21,783 bases of DNA from Fimbriimonadales bacterium (GTDB lineage: Bacteria; Armatimonadota; Fimbriimonadia; Fimbriimonadales; JABRVX01), in contig BTVI01000046.1 of the NCBI GenBank assembly GCA_045862955.1, positions 1 through 21,783 of the forward strand, read 5' to 3'. Below are positions 3,041-21,783 of this stretch, in pieces. Below the pieces are notes generated by a model. It did not search any database and was not told the DNA's origin. It was given only the letters and a program-made list of their open reading frames with translations. Made by a program: the position numbers and the translations under genes. Position 1 is the stretch's first letter. Each line of letters opens with the position of its first letter.

Positions 3041-4113
3041 TCCACCCTCCGCATCGCGATCAGCGCTGCAAGGAAGAAGATTGCGTTGGGTGCCCAGGCT
3101 GCTACGATAGGCGGTATCACTCCCGGTTCGCCCAGGATCTTGCTGAACAGCAGTAACAGGTTGATGTGCGCGAAGACCACTAACACGGAAAGAAGCACGC
3201 CCGCGAAGCCACCGCTCCTCGCGAATGCCAAGCTGAAGATGGGTCCGAAAAGGGAGAAGATAACGCACGCGAAGGGCACGGCGAGTTTGGTGTGGTACTG
3301 CACTTCCTTCGCGCGCACGTCGCGGCCCGCCCGGCGCTCTTCTTCGATCAACTCACCCAGCTTCTTTCGCGTAAGCTCGTCGGGCTGCGGGGCTCCCACG
3401 ATGTCCTGCAACGGCACGCGACCTTCGATCTCCATCCGCTCGATCTTCTCGAAGTGCAACAAGCGACCACCTGCGCCGAAGACCCAGGTTTGGGGGTCGT
3501 GCAGAATCCAGCGCCCGTTGTCATACACGGCTCGCGGTGCGCGCGTGATAGTCACCTCTTTCACGCCTTTGGGACGGAATGCGGTGACCTCTTGCACCTC
3601 GAACACACGGTCGGAGCGCTGCTGAACGAAACCGAGACAGAAGATGAACTCCCTAACACGCAGCACCGTGTTCGGCGCGAGGCTGGGCTGACTCTGCATC
3701 AGCGAGATTCGAAAGAAGAGCTGTTTGAACGCCGAGCCCGATCCGGGAACGACCGCTTCCTGAAACCAGTAGGTAAGGCCGAACATGAATAGTCCCATCA
3801 CTACGTATGGCAGGAAGATGCGGCGGACGCTGATACCCGCCATCCGCATCACCAGCACCTCTTGGTCCCGTGCTAGGCGACTGACGGCCATCGCCGTGCC
3901 CACCGCCGTGGCGACCGGGGCGGCGATCACTAACAAGAACGGAAGGCGAAAGAGGATCAACTGCAGGACGGCCAGCATGCCCACCTTGCGGTCGAGGAGC
4001 AGCGGGCCGAACTCCGCCAGCAAGCCGCCGGTCAGCAGCATGACTGCGGCAGCAGCACCGATGCCGAAAGGTAGCAAAGTCTCACCGATGAGGTAGCGGT
4101 CGAGACGTCTCAT
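3037..4113 (-). CDS. LptF/LptG family LPS export permease (358 aa)
   Basis: Start MRRLDRYLIGE. Has SRLARDQEVLVMRMAGIS, a periplasmic beta-jellyroll region, KLAVPFAC and the C-terminal PPIVAAWAPN motif. ATGA overlap with the upstream gene. Confidence 0.9.
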   Translation of the reverse strand: MRRLDRYLIGETLLPFGIGAAAAVMLLTGGLLAEFGPLLLDRKVGMLAVLQLILFRLPFLLVIAAPVATAVGTAMAVSRLARDQEVLVMRMAGISVRRIFLPYVVMGLFMFGLTYWFQEAVVPGSGSAFKQLFFRISLMQSQPSLAPNTVLRVREFIFCLGFVQQRSDRVFEVQEVTAFRPKGVKEVTITRAPRAVYDNGRWILHDPQTWVFGAGGRLLHFEKIERMEIEGRVPLQDIVGAPQPDELTRKKLGELIEEERRAGRDVRAKEVQYHTKLAVPFACVIFSLFGPIFSLAFARSGGFAGVLLSVLVVFAHINLLLLFSKILGEPGVIPPIVAAWAPNAIFFLAALIAMRRVE

Positions 4114-14912: not shown

Positions 14913-15182
14913 CTAGTGCTCCTCCTGCTTGGATTCCGGTGCTCCTTTGCGTTCCAGGTCCTCGATTCCTTTCGCCAAGAGGTCGAGAAAGGAGCGCACA
15001 TCGTCGATCTTGCACATCATGATCCCGGCGTAGACGGGATGCCGCATTACCAAAAGCTTGTCTCCAGGGTTGTAACCTAACTCGTGCCGCGCCTCCGCCG
15101 GGATGACGACCTGCCCTCGCTCCCCGACGGTGACGGACCCGTAGAAGTGCTTGTCACAACTGAACTGCTCGTGATTCACCAC
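14913..15182 (-). CDS. AbrB/MazE/SpoVT family DNA-binding protein
   Basis: GSVTVGERGQVVIPAEARHELGYNPGDKL signature and SD GGAAGGAGG. Confidence 0.92.
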   Translation of the reverse strand: MVNHEQFSCDKHFYGSVTVGERGQVVIPAEARHELGYNPGDKLLVMRHPVYAGIMMCKIDDVRSFLDLLAKGIEDLERKGAPESKQEEH

Positions 15183-15299: not shown

Positions 15300-15914
15300 C
15301 TACACGTCCCGAATGACGAGCAGGCGAATGGGAATGCCGACCACCTCGTGCTCGCCGACAGGGATGTCGGGATACCTAGGGTTGCGGCTACGTAGCACGG
15401 GTCCCGATGGCATGTCCACCCAAAGCTTCACCACGGGGCACCCCTCTACCTGCACCACGACTGGGTCACCGCTCTTCACCATGAACGACCGCTTTACAGC
15501 CACCAGCGCACCGTGCGGAAAGTCGGGGTCCATCGAGTCGCCTTGCACGCGAACGAAGAAGTCCGCCCCGCGTGCGAACTCCTCGGGCACCACGGCCGTC
15601 TGGGGTTCCAGAAGCGCCTCGCCCTGGCCCGCGAGACAGGTGCCCTCGACCGTCACCTCTATGAAGGCTCCGGGTGGCGAGGCGAGGTCGGCCAAGTGGT
15701 CGTAGCCTGCAGCTCGCAGCCATAGTTCGCGTGGCTCTCTCAGAGCCTGCGCGAGCCGGAGCACTACTTCCGGTGAGGGCACCACCTGCCCCAACATCCA
15801 GTTGGACACGTAGGACGGGTTAACCCCCGCGAGCGCGGCGAGCTTGCGCTGACTTAGCCTACGCTCTCGCATCACTCGCTCTACTTCGGCTAGGAACCGC
15901 TCTGCTCTCGGCAC
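15300..15914 (-). CDS. CI/LexA-like repressor (XRE HTH + S24 peptidase), ~204 aa
   Basis: HTH LSQRKLAALAGVNPSYVSNW, Ala-Gly cleavage site (CLAG), catalytic Ser (GDSM) and Lys (VVKL), L.S.NPRYPDI. Probable GTG start at 15914. Confidence 0.92.
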   Translation of the reverse strand: MPRAERFLAEVERVMRERRLSQRKLAALAGVNPSYVSNWMLGQVVPSPEVVLRLAQALREPRELWLRAAGYDHLADLASPPGAFIEVTVEGTCLAGQGEALLEPQTAVVPEEFARGADFFVRVQGDSMDPDFPHGALVAVKRSFMVKSGDPVVVQVEGCPVVKLWVDMPSGPVLRSRNPRYPDIPVGEHEVVGIPIRLLVIRDV

Positions 15915-15976
15915 TGCTCCAACCCCCTTCGTCGGCCCTCTGGGTTCCCGCCCTCGGCGGGCCCCAACTCGTCCTC

Positions 15977-16051
15977 CATGCCCTGGCCCGCGTCCTCCGT
16001 CCTGCTCCCCCTGAACGGACAGGATGAAGCCGAGGACCGCGCCAGGGCATG
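15977..16051. other. Long imperfect hairpin in the repressor 5' leader
   Basis: 11-bp perfect arms CATGCCCTGGC/GCCAGGGCATG with inner GTCCTC/GAGGAC and TCCTG/CAGGA pairings. Confidence 0.7.
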
Positions 16052-16065
16052 ACAACATCGTTCCC

Positions 16066-16119
16066 ATTCTACCCCTGGGTATTGACTACAGTCAACATTT
16101 ATGGTAGACTAATGTCTAC
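16066..16119. promoter_or_regulatory. Divergent promoters overlapped by two palindromic operators
   Basis: Plus strand: TTGACT(16082)-17-TAGACT(16105). Minus strand: TTGACT(16095-16090)-18-TAGAAT(16071-16066). Palindromes TTGAC-TACA-GTCAA and GTAGAC-TAAT-GTCTAC in an AT-rich patch. Confidence 0.8.
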
Positions 16120-16146
16120 ATCGTTTGCACGGATGAGGGGGCGTCA

Positions 16147-16389
16147 ATGGTTTTCGTTTGCGAGGCATGCCACAAGGAGCACTCCTCCTGGAGCAGCCTT
16201 TGCCCCGAGTGCCGGGAGTTCCTCGACCGATTTCAGGGACTGGTCGCCGAGTTCGAAGACCCGGTCCCTGCGCTGAGGCAATACTGCTCCGACGAGCTGA
16301 ACTGGATCGTATTCGACGGAGACGACGACTTCGACATGGACTGCCTGGCCCGCATGAGGCGGCTGCACGACGAGGGAGTGCGCCCGTGA
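16147..16389 (+). CDS. Small zinc-finger protein (CxxC-x10-CPxC) with acidic C-terminus, 80 aa
   Basis: SD GAGGGG. FVCEACHKEHSSWSSLCPEC. First gene after the rightward promoter, with GTGA overlap to the next ORF. Confidence 0.7.
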   Translation: MVFVCEACHKEHSSWSSLCPECREFLDRFQGLVAEFEDPVPALRQYCSDELNWIVFDGDDDFDMDCLARMRRLHDEGVRP

Positions 16390-16733
16390 CGCGGGTCGGC
16401 CGCAAAGCGAAGGGGACCGGAGTCGCCGGGGGGTGCGCGAACGGGGACGGCGCACAGGCTCCGGCCCCTTCGCCTCCCATGCCTCTCACGGTGGAGCACG
16501 CCTTTCGCCGAATAGCGGACGCAAGGGGTTTGGCGGAGGGCGACCTGTTCACGCGGGTGGTAGAGGCCGGGTTGGTATCGCAAGCCGAGCAGGGCCAGGG
16601 TTGGGCGGTCAAGCTGCTGCTCGAAACACTAATTGCGGCACCCGCCGACGAAGAGGTCGCGCGCCCGCTCAGCCCGGAAGCCGGTCAGCGCATCTACGAA
16701 ATACTGCTGCAGGAGCGAGCGCTTGACCGCTAA
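16386..16733 (+). CDS. Hypothetical protein, putative terminase small subunit (115 aa)
   Basis: GTG start overlaps the upstream TGA, and the 3' end overlaps the terL start. Helical ..GWAVKLLLE.. segment. Function inferred from position only. Confidence 0.55.
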   Translation: MTRVGRKAKGTGVAGGCANGDGAQAPAPSPPMPLTVEHAFRRIADARGLAEGDLFTRVVEAGLVSQAEQGQGWAVKLLLETLIAAPADEEVARPLSPEAGQRIYEILLQERALDR

Positions 16734-18090
16734 CGGTGCGTTGGCGTTGGCCGCGCTCTCCTCGATGGCGGTGTATGCGCGCGAAGTACATGGCATTCAG
16801 CCATCTGCGCATCACGAGGTGTGGATCAGAGCGTTGGAAGGTCCGGAGCCTCAGCGAGTGCTGATCACGGCGCCGCCGGAGCACGGCAAGTCCACGTGGA
16901 TAGCTGTCGTCTACCCCGCGTGGCGGTTGGCCAGGGACCCATCGCAGCACATCGTGCTTACCTCGGTGACGGACGCGCAGGCCGAAGACAGGGCGGACGC
17001 AGTGGCCGGTACGGTGCTCTCGGCACCTTACCGTCGTCTTTTCCCGCACGTGCGCAAGGGCAGCCGATGGACGAGGGGTGACTGGGACCTAGCAAGGCCC
17101 CGAGTGGACGACAAGGACTCGACGCTGTTCGCTTGCGGGGTGGGTAGTTCCACACTGATCGGACGGCGAGCAAGCTGTATCGTGATAGACGACCCGATGA
17201 GCGAGGAGACCGCACGAAGCCCTGCAGCGCGCAGACACCTGGCAACCTGGTGTAGACGAACCCTACTAACGCGTGCGGAGCGAGGCGCAAAGATCGTTTG
17301 CATCATGACGCGCTGGCACCAAGACGATCTCGCGCCAGTGCTCATTCAGGCCGGTTTCACACACATCGCAATGCCCGCAGAGGGGTATTGGGGTGAGGGA
17401 ACGGCGCTATGGCCGGAGCGCTTCCCGATGGAGTACCTGGAGGGTCGGCGGCGCGACATGGGCAGCGCACTCTACAACTGTATGTACCTGGGTGATCCTA
17501 GCGGTCTGGAAGGTCGCTTGTTCAAGCGGGAGTGGTTCGAGGTGGTGGATCGTCCACCTGCGTTGCGACGTATCGTGTGTGGCTGGGACCTGGCTACCAG
17601 CGAACGCACCGAGGCCGATTTCACGGTGAAGACTACGCTCGGTCTGGGAGTGGACGGTGTTACGTATGTGTTGGACCTTTGGCGCGCTCGCAGGGAGTTC
17701 CCCATCGTGAGGCGCGAGATCGCCGAGCAGGGCATGCGCGATAGGGCCGACGCAATAGCGGTAGAAGCCAATGCCTTCCAGCTTGCCGCGGTGCAGATGC
17801 TGAAGCGAGAAGGGCTGCCGGTACCGCTGCTTCCGATCTCGGCGGATCGTGACAAGGTGAGTAGGGCGCTGGAGTGGATAGCAGCTGCAGAGTCGGGTCT
17901 GGTGAAGCTGTTGCGTGGTAGCTGGAACGATGATTGGCTGGCGGAGGTGTGTGGTTTTCCGGATGCGCCTCACGACGATCAGGTAGACAGCTTCGGAGTA
18001 GCATGGAGGGCGCTGCGCCGGTACGTGCCCGAGGAACGGACGATTCGTGCGGGTCAGGAAAGGCTGATGTCGGCACAGGCAGATTGGTAG
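16723..18090 (+). CDS. Phage terminase large subunit (~455 aa)
   Basis: TTG start with AGGAG SD. Walker A ITAPPEHGKST, Walker B IVIDDP, coupling motif IMTRWH, nuclease acidic residues GWDLA, DF and HDDQVD. Confidence 0.95.
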   Translation: MTANGALALAALSSMAVYAREVHGIQPSAHHEVWIRALEGPEPQRVLITAPPEHGKSTWIAVVYPAWRLARDPSQHIVLTSVTDAQAEDRADAVAGTVLSAPYRRLFPHVRKGSRWTRGDWDLARPRVDDKDSTLFACGVGSSTLIGRRASCIVIDDPMSEETARSPAARRHLATWCRRTLLTRAERGAKIVCIMTRWHQDDLAPVLIQAGFTHIAMPAEGYWGEGTALWPERFPMEYLEGRRRDMGSALYNCMYLGDPSGLEGRLFKREWFEVVDRPPALRRIVCGWDLATSERTEADFTVKTTLGLGVDGVTYVLDLWRARREFPIVRREIAEQGMRDRADAIAVEANAFQLAAVQMLKREGLPVPLLPISADRDKVSRALEWIAAAESGLVKLLRGSWNDDWLAEVCGFPDAPHDDQVDSFGVAWRALRRYVPEERTIRAGQERLMSAQADW

Positions 18091-18097
18091 GGGGAGG

Positions 18098-19297
18098 ATG
18101 ATGGGTAAGAGCAGGCTGTTAGGAGACAGGACGCCACACCTAATGGGATCGGTCTTGCAGTCTATGCGTTATCCGGTGGGAGCCGCGATGGAGCCCATCG
18201 CGGGATACGACGATCTACGTCGCCGGTGGAGTGTGTTGCGGAAGATGGAGCGGGACCCGGTAATCGCTGCGGCCCTAGCGGTGAAGAAGTGGTTGCCGAT
18301 CGGTGATGGGTGGCGTGTGAATGCGGCTGGACCGGATGAGAACAGCCGGGAGCGAGCGGCCTTCATGCGCTGGGCGTTCCAGCAGATGCAGGGCACGGTA
18401 GAGAATCTGATCTCCGATGTGTTGGACGCCGTGGGAATAGGGTTCAGCGTGCTGGAGAAGGTGTATCGCGTGGTGGACTCCGGACCTTATGTAGGCCGAG
18501 TGGTGCCGCTCCGCTTCGTGCCGAAGGACCCTGCCACCGTCGGCTTCGAGATGGACGAGCGAGGCGACGTGCGCGCTATAACTGTCACGGTGCCCGGTGT
18601 GTGTCGTGCAAGGCCCTACCCGCCTGAGAAGTTCGTGCACTATGCCCACGAACCTCGGTATGGAAGCCCCTATGGCAGCGGCGACCTACTGCGCGCGTAT
18701 CGCTCGTGGTGGTCGAAGGACAACGCACTGAAGTGGTGGGCAGTTTATGTCGAGAAGTACGGCATCATCCCTCGCGTTGCCATGTATGAAGACGGGGCGA
18801 GTGCCGAGTTTCAGCAAGAGCTCTTGGACCAGCTGCGGGTGTCGGCGGCGAACACCGAGTTCGTGCTACCACGCTCGGTGCAACTCCAGCTGCTGCAACC
18901 TACGGGAGATGGCACGGCGTTCGAGCGCTTCGTACAGTATCATGACAAGGAGCTGGCGAAGGCGGTGTTAGGCAACACGTTGCTGCTCGACGAAGGTCAC
19001 CGCGTAGGCAGTCTCGCTCTTGGACGAGTTCATCAATCGGTGGTGGAGTCCCGTGTGCGCAAACTGAAGCGGGAGATCGAGGACCGGGTGATGGGTGAGC
19101 AGGTGATACGACCGCTGATCGAGCTGAACTACGGTGATAGCGAAGCCATGCCGCGCTTCGCTCTGCCCGAGCCCAGTCGCGAGGACGTAGCGCGCCTATC
19201 GGAGGCGATCGCGAAGCTGACCAAGGCGGGGGCAGTAGACGCGCGCGAGCCCTGGATCCGTGACCTCCTCGGCTGGCCGACGAGGGCGGAGGAGTAG
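18098..19297 (+). CDS. Phage portal protein, DUF935 / Mu gp29-like (399 aa)
   Basis: MERDP.I.AAL, GFSVLEKVY, SPYGSG.L...Y..W..K....KWW..YVEKYG.P, KAVLG.TL, GS.ALG.VH, LI.PLI.LN. Directly after terL with GGAGG SD. Confidence 0.9.
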   Translation: MMGKSRLLGDRTPHLMGSVLQSMRYPVGAAMEPIAGYDDLRRRWSVLRKMERDPVIAAALAVKKWLPIGDGWRVNAAGPDENSRERAAFMRWAFQQMQGTVENLISDVLDAVGIGFSVLEKVYRVVDSGPYVGRVVPLRFVPKDPATVGFEMDERGDVRAITVTVPGVCRARPYPPEKFVHYAHEPRYGSPYGSGDLLRAYRSWWSKDNALKWWAVYVEKYGIIPRVAMYEDGASAEFQQELLDQLRVSAANTEFVLPRSVQLQLLQPTGDGTAFERFVQYHDKELAKAVLGNTLLLDEGHRVGSLALGRVHQSVVESRVRKLKREIEDRVMGEQVIRPLIELNYGDSEAMPRFALPEPSREDVARLSEAIAKLTKAGAVDAREPWIRDLLGWPTRAEE

Positions 19298-19364
19298 GTC
19301 TCGCAGGCTCCCTCGCCTTCGCCACTACGAGTGGTGGGTGGCAGGGCCAGCCGTGGCAGTACTT

Positions 19365-20430
19365 GTACCGTCATGCTGAGCCCAGGGAGGGTGGTGGCGC
19401 CGACTGGGGGCTCTAGGGCCCCAGCAGCCTGCACACGGGTCGGGTCGCGGCCAAACCCCATCTGCCGTCATGCTGAGCTTGTCGAAGCATGACGGGGAGA
19501 GCCGCGAGGTTGCATGTTATGATGCTGCGTTCGCGGCAGGTGGCTGTCATGCTTCGACAGGCTCAGCATGACGGGGTCGGTGGTGGAGGGTGGGTGGATG
19601 CTTCCGCGGGCTCAGCATGACGGGGTTGGTGGTGTACGTGGGGGCGGGGCGGCTTGCCCCGGCAGGGTGCGGCGAGCGGCTGTCATGCTTCGACAGGCTC
19701 AGCATGACGGAGTCGGTGGTGGAGGGTGGGTGGATGCTTTCGCGGGCTCAGCATGACGACCGTTACGATGGTTGGACCTGCAGGAGCTACCGTGGTAAAG
19801 GCGGACGCGACGCCTGGCAGAGCCATTGCCGCCATGCTCGGCCCAGGGAGAGGGGAACCCCGACCAGGGGGTGTGTGGATGCACTGCAACCGCCCCTCTA
19901 ACCGACTGAAGGCATGGCCCCCCCGGAGGTGTGTGCAGGTACCATCAGCCAGCGCGCATGTCGGGGCGTGCATAACGCTCGTGCCCCGTCATGCTGAGCT
20001 TGTCGAAGCATGACGGGGAGAGCCGCGAGGTTGTATGTTATGATGCTTCGTTCGCGGCAGGTGGCCGTCATGCTTCGACGGGCTGAGCATGGCGATGTAC
20101 CTGTTTCCACCTCATCACCCGGGCCTTCAGGGCGAGTCAGCGACACACCCTCCGCTCGGTGCTAGTTCTCACCTCTCGTAGAGGACGGGTTACTGGCGAC
20201 GCCACGTTGAGCATGACGTTTCCAGTGCCCTATCGTTCTTCGGTGATGAGGTTTGGGAGGAAGAGGAGCCGATTGCGACCTCCGAGAACGCAACAACCGC
20301 ACCCCCGTCATGCTGAGCTTTGCGTCATGCTGAGCCTGTCGAAGCATGACGCCGGATGCCGCGACCGCAGCACCTGAAGTCGGTGACGTGCTGCCTGCGT
20401 GTGCATGCTTCGACAGGCTCAGCATGACGG
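19365..20430. repeat. Mosaic cluster of REP-like palindromes and linkers
   Basis: Inverted REP doublets at 19467-19572, 19988-20093 and 20324-20428, plus single units. Linkers shared with 1-672. Confidence 0.9.
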
Positions 20431-20798
20431 TCTCGGAGGGTAGAACGCTCTCACTGCCTCACCCTCTGCGAGTGGTGAGGTGCGATCTGGCTATCATCCT
20501 GAGACGACGCAGGCACGCAGGGTGGCGAACGCGGGCCCGTCGTCCCGCTGGAGCGCACGCTGACGCTGAGGGCTAAAGCCGTCCCACCTCGCGCGACCGA
20601 GGGACCCCCTTTCTCGCTCCTCTCACGCAGCGCGTCCGGCACCGGACGCACCTGAAAAGGTGGCTACGGGTCACCCCCCGAGAGCAGGCCGCACGCGTTG
20701 GGACCGGCGACCGCTCCCTCGGGATGACAGGCTCAACGCCGGGCCGATGGTTGCTCGGCGGTCGCACGGCGTGCCCTTTCGCTGCCAGAATAGCGGTC

Positions 20799-21385: not shown

Positions 21386-21783
21386 CCGTCATGCTGAGTC
21401 TATCGTCATGCTGAGCTTGAGTTCATGGTGAGCCAGTCGAAGCATGACCCTGCTGTCAAGGTGACCCTGGCCTCATGCTGAGCCTGACGTCATGTTGAGT
21501 GTATCGTCATGCTGAGCCTGTCGAAGCATGACGGCGGATGCCGCGACCGCAGTACCTGAAGGCGATGACGTGCTGCCTGCGTGTGCATGCTTCGACAGGC
21601 TCAGCATGACGATCGTGACGATGGTTGGACCTGCAGGAGCCGCCGTGGTAAAGGCGGACGGGACGCCTGGCAGAGCCAATGCCGCCATGCTCGGCCCATG
21701 GAAGGTGGTGGTCCCTACCTGGGGCTCTAGGGCCCCAGCAGCCAGCGCACGGGTCGGGGCGCGGCCAAACCCCATCCGCCGTC
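21386..21783. repeat. REP mosaic cluster including the right copy of the 141-bp terminal repeat (21643-21783)
   Basis: Several GTCATGCTGAG units. The doublet 21506-21610 matches 20324-20428. The end matches 1-141. Confidence 0.9.

Follow-up and report, generated by a model that had tools for sequence, protein, structure and literature searches.

Genes for a candidate SOS-wired, two-locus element resembling gene transfer agents or PBSX in a family of Armatimonadota

Contig C46 in the draft genome of a Fimbriimonadales bacterium (phylum Armatimonadota; 94 contigs, 3.36 Mb) carries a compact set of phage-type DNA-packaging genes: a gene for a CI/LexA-like repressor (rep) and, divergent from it, genes for a zinc-ribbon protein (ZnF), a 115-aa product in the position of a small terminase, a large terminase (TerL) and a Mu-type portal. 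The entire contig, 21,783 nt in length, is the stretch analyzed here and is referred to as the window. The source genome (G000), the genome of a sister species (G001) and that of a sister genus (G002) are all three genomes of one family, f1. Here we describe a matching head and tail locus elsewhere in the source genome and a shared promoter box, and present the two loci as a candidate SOS-wired element resembling gene transfer agents (GTAs) or PBSX.

The repressor, the large terminase and the portal are supported by profile matches. The long open reading frame (ORF) containing rep, 15300-16067 on the minus strand, matches HTH_3 (1.2e-10) and Peptidase_S24 (4.3e-15) in Pfam as well as phrog_4 (1.2e-24), and its product is 93% identical in G001 over an alignment that begins only at residue 47, so that the real gene is probably close to the shorter span in Table 1. 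Rep has the composition of an S24 repressor, with an N-terminal helix-turn-helix (HTH), an S24 domain, a candidate Ser/Lys dyad and a candidate Ala-Gly site; its translation contains G-D-S-M, V-V-K-L and an A-G dipeptide, the first two of which we take by analogy to be the catalytic dyad and the last the cleavage site. TerL matches phrog_38 (1.7e-94), Terminase_6C (4.6e-10) and, above cut-off, TIGR01630 (64.5 bits). Its GKST and IVIDD motifs align weakly with the Walker A and B motifs of T7 gp19 in a profile search against PDB (E 0.003), and the single sequence gave no match there.

The first two genes of the operon are orphans. ZnF has four invariant cysteines (CxxC-x10-CxxC) in 4 of 4 sequences, and its only Pfam match, Zn_ribbon_6 (0.0027), is below cut-off. 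A word-index search of 5.8e9 proteins returned a single protein, 96% identical. HMMER against 1.84e9 representatives gave six matches at E<=0.001, of which one is a full-length 80-aa protein from the cluster of ZnF itself; the other five, short stretches within proteins of 717-5721 aa, were regarded as spurious. An AlphaFold2 model (pLDDT 66.7) compared by Foldseek with PDB and BFVD gave nothing at E<=0.001. We regard ZnF as a candidate regulator. The 115-aa ORF is 41% identical in G002 and has no match in Pfam, PHROG, NCBIfam or PADLOC; its model was poor (pLDDT 54) and was for that reason excluded from the fold search. Its GTG start at 16386 overlaps the ZnF stop codon (GTGA), with an ATGA overlap at the same place in G002, and roughly 31 nt separate it from TerL, which in turn lies 7 nt before the portal gene.

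A sequence-only reading of this locus had proposed a repressor divergent from a tightly coupled four-gene operon, and this architecture stands. Its gene labels hold for the repressor, TerL and portal and, by the cysteines more than by the profile, for the zinc-ribbon protein, while the small-terminase label is a matter of position and translational coupling, with no TerS family matched. The intact catalytic motifs that it reported can be read in the repressor; those of TerL find only the weak T7 alignment.

Table 1. Features of the packaging block in the window and of the head-tail block on contig C27 of the source genome.
Feature	Location	Strand	Basis or remark
Rep, CI/LexA-like repressor (XRE-type HTH + S24 peptidase), ~209 aa	15300..15929	-	Pfam and phrog_4
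Predicted rep promoter, TTGACT-18-TAGAAT	16066..16095	-	consensus scan, 10/12
Predicted packaging promoter, TTGACT-17-TAGACT, TG before -10	16082..16110	+	kept in G001 and G002
Palindrome TTGAC-TACA-GTCAA over back-to-back -35 hexamers of rep and ZnF	16082..16095	.	candidate second operator
Perfect palindrome GTAGAC-N4-GTCTAC over -10/+1 of packaging promoter	16104..16119	.	probable LexA (SOS) box
ZnF, orphan zinc-ribbon protein, 80 aa	16147..16389	+	four Cys, acidic C-terminal half
115-aa ORF, small-terminase position	16386..16733	+	basic N-terminus, helical C-terminal part
TerL, large terminase (ATPase + RNaseH-like nuclease)	16765..18090	+	likely start ATG 16765
Mu-type portal	18098..19297	+	PF06074 2e-69 over profile positions 2-335 of 336; phrog_113 2.6e-70
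REP-type palindromic repeat array	19300..20720	.	core GTCATGCTGAGCYTGTCGAAGCATGAC; break point of all assemblies
327-aa protein (p327)	C27 block		weak Mu gpI and head-protease matches (protease/scaffold)
144-aa virion/head protein (p144)	C27 block		phrog_1731
gpT capsid	C27 block		phrog_371 1.2e-53; PF10124 1.5e-48 for G002 orthologue
Two small ORFs	C27 block		between gpT capsid and gp36-like adaptor
Mu gp36-like adaptor	C27 block		PF07030 7e-16
Amidase_2	C27 block		6.8e-31
139-aa protein (p139) and two small overlapping ORFs	C27 block		
Tail-end proteins of 738, 974 and 396 aa (p738, p974, p396)	C27 block		p974 with BNR-like C-terminus, below cut-off

Searching G000 with the G002 proteins encoded after the portal led to a second locus, G000:C27:25515-38067, where a Mu-like head, tail and amidase operon lies on one strand between dnaE and miaB. 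It starts 222 nt from the divergent dnaE and is followed by two ORFs, one of 262 aa without a family and one of 295 aa with a PEP-CTERM match, and then by miaB. With the portal (PF06074), the gpT capsid (PF10124) and the gp36 adaptor (PF07030), the two loci together supply a Mu-like head module. The Mu F head-morphogenesis protein (PF04233) was found in none of the three family genomes, and the tail proteins match no Mu family apart from a sub-threshold GpP-like stretch. A pair of REP-type (repetitive extragenic palindromic) elements is inserted in the tail operon between the p738 and p974 genes (G000:C27:33465-33945). We saw no integrase or replication gene adjoining the packaging block, the C27 block or the contiguous copy in G002. 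With capsid, tail and amidase genes on C27, the module is not the stand-alone unit that had been supposed, while the accompanying expectation that its structural genes would lie elsewhere proved right. As a side observation, the 262-aa ORF after the tail-fibre gene (G000:C27:38350-39138) has a synonymous divergence (dS) between G000 and G001 of 0.10, compared with 0.3-1.0 for every other gene, an unusual degree of conservation at silent sites.

The arrangement of both loci can be followed on a single 58.6-kb contig of G001, which reads portal, TerL, 115-aa ORF, ZnF, rep, an abrB-like gene, TolC, membrane fusion protein (MFP), AcrB, some 8 kb of housekeeping genes, trmH, miaB, the tail-to-head operon and dnaE. 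The two blocks have the same orientation and are separated by about 20 kb that includes core host genes, and the equivalent of this spacer in G000 encodes LptF/G, PlsY, biotin carboxyl carrier protein (BCCP), RNase HII and a resistance-nodulation-division (RND) pump. The window and C27 are collinear with the G001 contig, so the synteny check proposed in the sequence-only reading gives the same arrangement at the same places. We considered and rejected a single prophage with cargo that would take up the 36 kb between head genes and portal, since the intervening genes are housekeeping genes. In G002 the set is contiguous over about 16.3 kb: ZnF, the 115-aa ORF, TerL and portal are followed by a 1.1-kb insert and then by a 320-aa protein, the 144-aa protein and the Mu gpT capsid. 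The neighbors of this copy are genes for MurJ and a secreted protein at one end and for a cyclase and epimerases at the other end; their orthologues are scattered over many G000 contigs, which makes the flank synteny between the two genomes uninformative. The rep gene of G002 is unlinked, on a separate contig away from the element, and directly upstream of it we observed a palindrome with 17-nt arms (G002:C12 ~3225-3265) that may be an operator or a terminator.

Both operons begin with a predicted promoter that carries the same kind of palindromic box. The promoter of the head operon, TTGACA-17-TATAAT with a TG, agrees with the consensus at 12 of 12 positions and has the box GTAGACGCATGTCTGG in its spacer, and at the packaging promoter a perfect palindrome overlaps the -10/+1 region (Table 1). 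The boxes of both promoters are retained in G001 and G002, in the latter as a one-mismatch copy at the same place of the packaging promoter. The other palindrome between rep and ZnF, the related TTGAC-TACA-GTCAA, is identical in G001 and is not palindromic in G002, where rep is unlinked; at a guess, it may be an operator for Rep or for LexA.

Where else the box occurs points to its owner. The perfect 16-mer is found at three sites in G000, namely the packaging promoter, a dnaE2-like polymerase gene and a glyoxalase-like gene, and at a single site in G001, the packaging promoter. One-mismatch copies in G000 precede recA, a Y-family polymerase gene, a radical-SAM gene (SplB-like by our own reading) and mraZ. 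Upstream of recA, all three family genomes have a box, and across the order at least 9 of 10 core bases are matched there in 19 of 30 genomes and at least 8 of 10 in 25 of 30, against a chance rate that we estimate at about 1% per 400 nt. The genome also has a canonical LexA, on G000:C29 (TIGR00498, 196.7 bits). Because the same box precedes recA across the order, dnaE2 and the Y-family polymerase gene, GTAGAC-N4-GTCT(AC) is probably the LexA box of this order, for which our literature search found no description of an SOS box. The expectation that a capsid cluster elsewhere would carry the operator of the packaging operon is thus borne out, with the identity of the operator corrected from a CI-type site to what is most likely the host LexA box. 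The gate on the packaging operon, originally ascribed to the CI-like repressor, is likewise probably LexA, with Rep, unlinked in G002, as a putative second lock.

Further copies of the box were noted in passing. Those before the glyoxalase-like gene, mraZ and a 189-aa ORF by hrcA (G000:C33:30025, C1:64584 and C1:27204, respectively) may mark unusual regulon members. In another family, an unrelated TerL (32% identity) is preceded at a distance of about 1.9 kb by a box with a perfect core, TAGACATATGTCTA (G031:C4, L151 position 19826), and phage regions of the class may commonly have direct SOS boxes.

The head-operon promoter is followed by a leader of about 200 nt, in which G000 and G001 share about 97% identity as far as an intrinsic terminator with a 14-bp stem; the terminator is kept in G002 with different stem letters. 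No Rfam family matched at gathering score in nine sources that included this leader and the promoter cassettes of G002. These cassettes, of which we observed at least eight copies (L087, L090, L093, L099 and L104-L107, at position ~1480-1560 in each), consist of a small hairpin, AAAGAG, a TAGAC-N4-GTCTA-type box at -35 and a TG-extended -10 (TGGTACAAT in most), with TTGAC/GTCAA variants of the box in two copies. Several copies are followed by a conserved non-coding stretch without an ORF, and the upstream part of the cassette recurs in the promoter of the G002 head operon. The cassettes may represent a family of small RNAs or mobile promoters that has no name so far.

The element has a narrow distribution. 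Close relatives of TerL (at least 71% identity) occur in only 3 of 228 Fimbriimonadia genomes, all of family f1; matches at E<=1e-20 occur in 28 of the 228, the next best after f1 being 38% identical. Orthologues of Rep are found in the same three genomes as close TerL, a co-occurrence that counts as a single event because the carriers form one clade. A contig scan of genomes for relatives confirmed 1 of 147 stretches, which is G002, and a metagenome scan confirmed 40 loci from 204 stretches, one close (91%, on a 1.8-kb contig), one at 50% and the rest at 38% or less. The TerL regions of other families (G173, G031 and G172) share neither the portal nor the head genes.

Within the genus, the element genes evolve much as host genes do. 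Ratios of nonsynonymous to synonymous divergence (dN/dS) were computed by NG86 for G000 against G001. They are 0.050 for TerL, 0.058 for the portal, 0.045 for rep, 0.11 for ZnF and 0.09 for the 115-aa ORF, and in the C27 block 0.038 for gpT, 0.041 for p144, 0.067 for p139, 0.11 for p738, 0.10 for p974 and 0.11 for p396. The host genes dnaE, acrB and miaB give 0.049, 0.042 and 0.073 at a dS of 0.66-0.76, and the dS of these 11 element genes is 0.62-0.98 (0.32 for ZnF). The remaining C27 ORFs give 0.13 for p327, 0.17 for the amidase, 0.19 for p120 and 0.61 for p160; for p125, p232 and p220, which were called with starts too far upstream, the values are 0.30-0.42. No internal stops were found in the element genes of G001. 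Between G000 and G002, element proteins are 49-74% identical, compared with 48-83% for host proteins, and the GC content at third codon positions of the element (0.70-0.84) brackets the genome mean of 0.742 (standard deviation 0.054). These values speak for long vertical inheritance under selection within the genus, and ratios of 0.04-0.11 at host-like dS make a purely neutral remnant unlikely there.

In the published working description, GTAs consist of packaging and structural genes only, can occupy several loci and have arisen independently more than once (PMC11841831). The element described here comprises packaging and structural genes with which no replication, integration or lysogeny module was found, rep being the only lysogeny-type gene. 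Its two loci are about 20 kb apart in G001 and both promoters share the box, by which they would be co-regulated. It appears vertically inherited under purifying selection within the genus, as judged from three genomes of which one, G002, has lesions. We therefore consider it reasonably probable, while well short of certain, that rep and the ZnF-ORF-TerL-portal operon are the packaging half of a two-locus, phage-derived set that is under selection, is likely induced through LexA upon DNA damage and makes GTA-like or PBSX-like particles.

Since both halves carry the operator found before recA, the kit is likely induced by DNA damage, and its operation might be as follows. In undamaged cells, LexA would occupy both boxes, Rep perhaps the adjacent palindrome, and both promoters would be shut. 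Upon damage, RecA-stimulated self-cleavage of the repressors would allow both operons to be transcribed, with a further factor, possibly ZnF, needed for read-through of the leader terminator. ZnF is the only candidate for such a factor within the operon, and neither sequence nor fold searches linked it to known antiterminators. Heads would assemble on the portal and TerL would fill them by a headful mechanism, with the 115-aa product as small subunit. Because no replication or excision module was found and the gene set is split, the cargo would be mostly host DNA, and the amidase would finally open the cell and release the particles. The most specific form of this proposal, a GTA of an Armatimonadota family with an independent Mu-like origin, spread over two loci (three in G002, counting rep) under LexA boxes, with ZnF as antiterminator and with chromosome fragments broadcast by damaged cells to their kin, is possible yet in our view rather doubtful.

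A number of observations weigh against the proposal. The carriers are three genomes of a single clade. Three lesions mark the tail genes of G002: a TAG stop at codon 116 in the homologue of p139 and, in that of p974, both a TGA stop and a frameshift within a run of eight G. The amidase is missing as well, so that the element may be decaying in that genus. The dN/dS comparison called for by the sequence-only reading argues against neutral decay between G000 and G001, and the two nonsense codons and the frameshift of G002 speak against a family-wide function. That reading had also named close relatives with a full prophage at this site, and pseudogenisation, as counter-evidence, and the contiguous form in G002, with its lesions, answers to this in part. 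Tape-measure, sheath and baseplate families were not recognized, and function assignment was attempted for ZnF and the 115-aa ORF and none was obtained. In both genus genomes, the assembly breaks about 0.2 kb past the portal. A partial list of population variants (portal 5 nonsynonymous and 4 synonymous, TerL 0 and 3) is too incomplete to weigh. As regards the box, lexA itself has only a degenerate copy in its own promoter, at least 6 of the 14 sites in G002 lie within the repeated promoter cassette with no SOS gene nearby, and the counts of sites with at most one mismatch do not exceed those of a reversed-pattern control (G000 11 against 10, G001 9 against 16, G002 14 against 7), which is why the case for the box rests on where the sites are.

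Several other explanations can be measured against the same evidence. The lesions and missing amidase of G002, the invasion of the locus by REP elements, the lack of Mu F in the three genomes and the orphan status of ZnF and the 115-aa ORF would all suit a cryptic prophage remnant, an old Mu-like-headed prophage that lost its early genes, was cut in two by repeat-mediated rearrangement and has so far escaped degradation. Yet at a dS of 0.6-1.0 the genes with an assigned role have dN/dS values of 0.04-0.13 (0.17 for the amidase), like those of dnaE, acrB and miaB, there are no internal stops between G000 and G001, and promoters, boxes and leader terminator are kept in all three genomes. We thus think a remnant rather improbable: the deleted prophage allowed for at the outset is disfavored within the genus by its purifying selection. 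A somewhat different possibility, unlikely in our estimation, is that the same domesticated kit makes particles that kill related cells without delivering DNA, in the manner of PBSX, which is described as GTA-like yet acting as a tailocin (PMC12946183). Such a role would fit the SOS wiring of the element and its lysis enzyme, and also the faster divergence of the tail-end proteins (738, 974 and 396 aa), which are 84-88% identical between G000 and G001 compared with 92-94% for the head and packaging proteins. Sequence does not discriminate killing from transfer; TerL and the portal are, however, as constrained as the capsid, so that filling heads with DNA seems to matter.

That the element is a still-active temperate phage or other inducible element, with its missing modules hidden beyond the unassembled repeats after the portal, is very improbable. 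It would draw on the assembly break past the portal in both genus genomes and on the presence of a CI-like repressor and an endolysin, but about 20 kb with housekeeping genes sets the packaging genes apart from the head and tail genes upstream of them, synteny of the flanks persists at a dS of about 0.8, host genes border the contiguous copy in G002, where no integrase was seen, and the composition is host-like. The remaining idea, a satellite or a module for phage interference that would hijack capsids from an infecting phage, had been raised from the sequence alone, and its sole support is that the window has a terminase and a portal but no capsid. The genome itself has a matching capsid-tail operon that carries the same box, neither the window nor the surroundings of the C27 locus showed an integrase or replication gene, and PADLOC matched no defense family, with no match to ZnF, the 115-aa ORF, TerL or the portal and only HTH-type matches to rep. 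We find it scarcely credible.

The surroundings of the packaging block bear on the assembly as much as on the element. Upstream are an RND efflux operon and genes for LptF/G, PlsY, CN hydrolase, BCCP, YraN and RNase HII; downstream, the portal is followed by 1.4 kb of REP-type palindromes, trmH and further REPs. The REP core GTCATGCTGAGCYTGTCGAAGCATGAC has about 1196 matches across G000 and is present at 43 of 188 contig ends. Positions 1-141 of the window are identical to 21643-21783 (100% over 141 nt), and the contig therefore closes on itself through REP repeats; since the apparent circle holds housekeeping genes, a real replicon is very unlikely. In G001, trmH adjoins what is the other end of the window (the position 1 side), beside miaB, and Logan contigs from four DNA runs in four studies all end at 19475-19491, with none crossing the REP array. 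The terminal identity, the location of trmH in G001 and the stopping of these contigs make the portal-REP-trmH join doubtful, and it is probably an assembly artefact. The original placement of the block between an efflux operon and REP-rich DNA with trmH therefore holds on the efflux side and is doubtful on the other. Its statement that the window lacks an integrase, a tRNA and capsid, tail and lysis genes agrees with our scans, in which no tRNA and, by profile scans of the window proteins, no integrase, capsid, tail or lysis family was found in the window. Between rep and the TolC gene lies a MazE/AbrB-type ORF (14913-15182, minus strand; PF04014 7.6e-06) that is kept in G001 and shares its strand with the efflux operon, so that rep, this ORF and the pump could be one transcription unit. 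The stretch is present in sequencing runs from 12 studies. Four runs filed as RNA-Seq, two of them probably DNA, contain scattered pieces of 151-413 nt at a depth of 2-4 on rep, ZnF, TerL and portal, for which DNA carry-over is possible.

Few GTAs are known outside the Alphaproteobacteria, according to one account (PMC12946183), and another notes that they are hard to distinguish from prophage debris (PMC11841831). We found no report of a GTA in Armatimonadota, as judged by titles and the beginnings of abstracts, and the candidate provides a clear test case from this phylum, which has received little study and is common in sludge and bioreactors. The analysis also yields a probable SOS box of the order.

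Among known systems, the head module of Mu-like phages shares with the element the Mu-type portal, the gpT capsid, the gp36 adaptor and a weak match to the gpI protease; unlike Mu, the element has F in none of three genomes and no transposase or early region was seen next to its genes. PBSX of Bacillus subtilis is SOS-induced through its repressor Xre. Together with FpGTA of Faecalibacterium, which is described as two operons about 125 kb apart, one with tail and lysis genes (PMC12946183), PBSX exemplifies defective or domesticated particles outside the Alphaproteobacteria, as proposed here, the likeness being one of description. In contrast to both, the box of the element is common to recA, and host LexA would therefore act on it directly. 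Such direct action has a parallel in GIL01, where host LexA is reported to bind SOS boxes in a phage promoter (PMC4551915), although GIL01 is a replicating phage whereas the element is split on the chromosome and no replication module was found.

The closest precedents for a two-tier, two-locus logic are BaGTA and CcGTA. BaGTA is described as having two loci, with a regulator from one of them targeting a promoter whose long attenuating leader and terminator precede the capsid operon (10.1101/2024.11.20.624540), and CcGTA as having a factor-binding element between -35 and -10 and a terminator that must be bypassed (PMC11150451); in both, an antiterminator from one locus is reported to act on the leader terminator of the capsid locus (10.1101/2024.11.20.624540; PMC11150451). 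The element differs from BaGTA in that no Q21-like antiterminator was recognized, ZnF has no fold match and a module for run-off replication was not seen. More broadly, the multilocus GTAs RcGTA, CcGTA and VSH-1 consist, like the element, of packaging and structural genes that occupy several loci, are passed on together with the host and come under host regulators (PMC11841831; PMC5026251). These GTAs package host DNA, as the element would in the proposal made here. The element differs from them in what appear to be distinct gene families, with a Mu-type portal (PF06074), a Mu gpT capsid (PF10124) and a T7-like TerL, in its home in the Armatimonadota, and in the direct control by a LexA-type box that is predicted at both of its loci.

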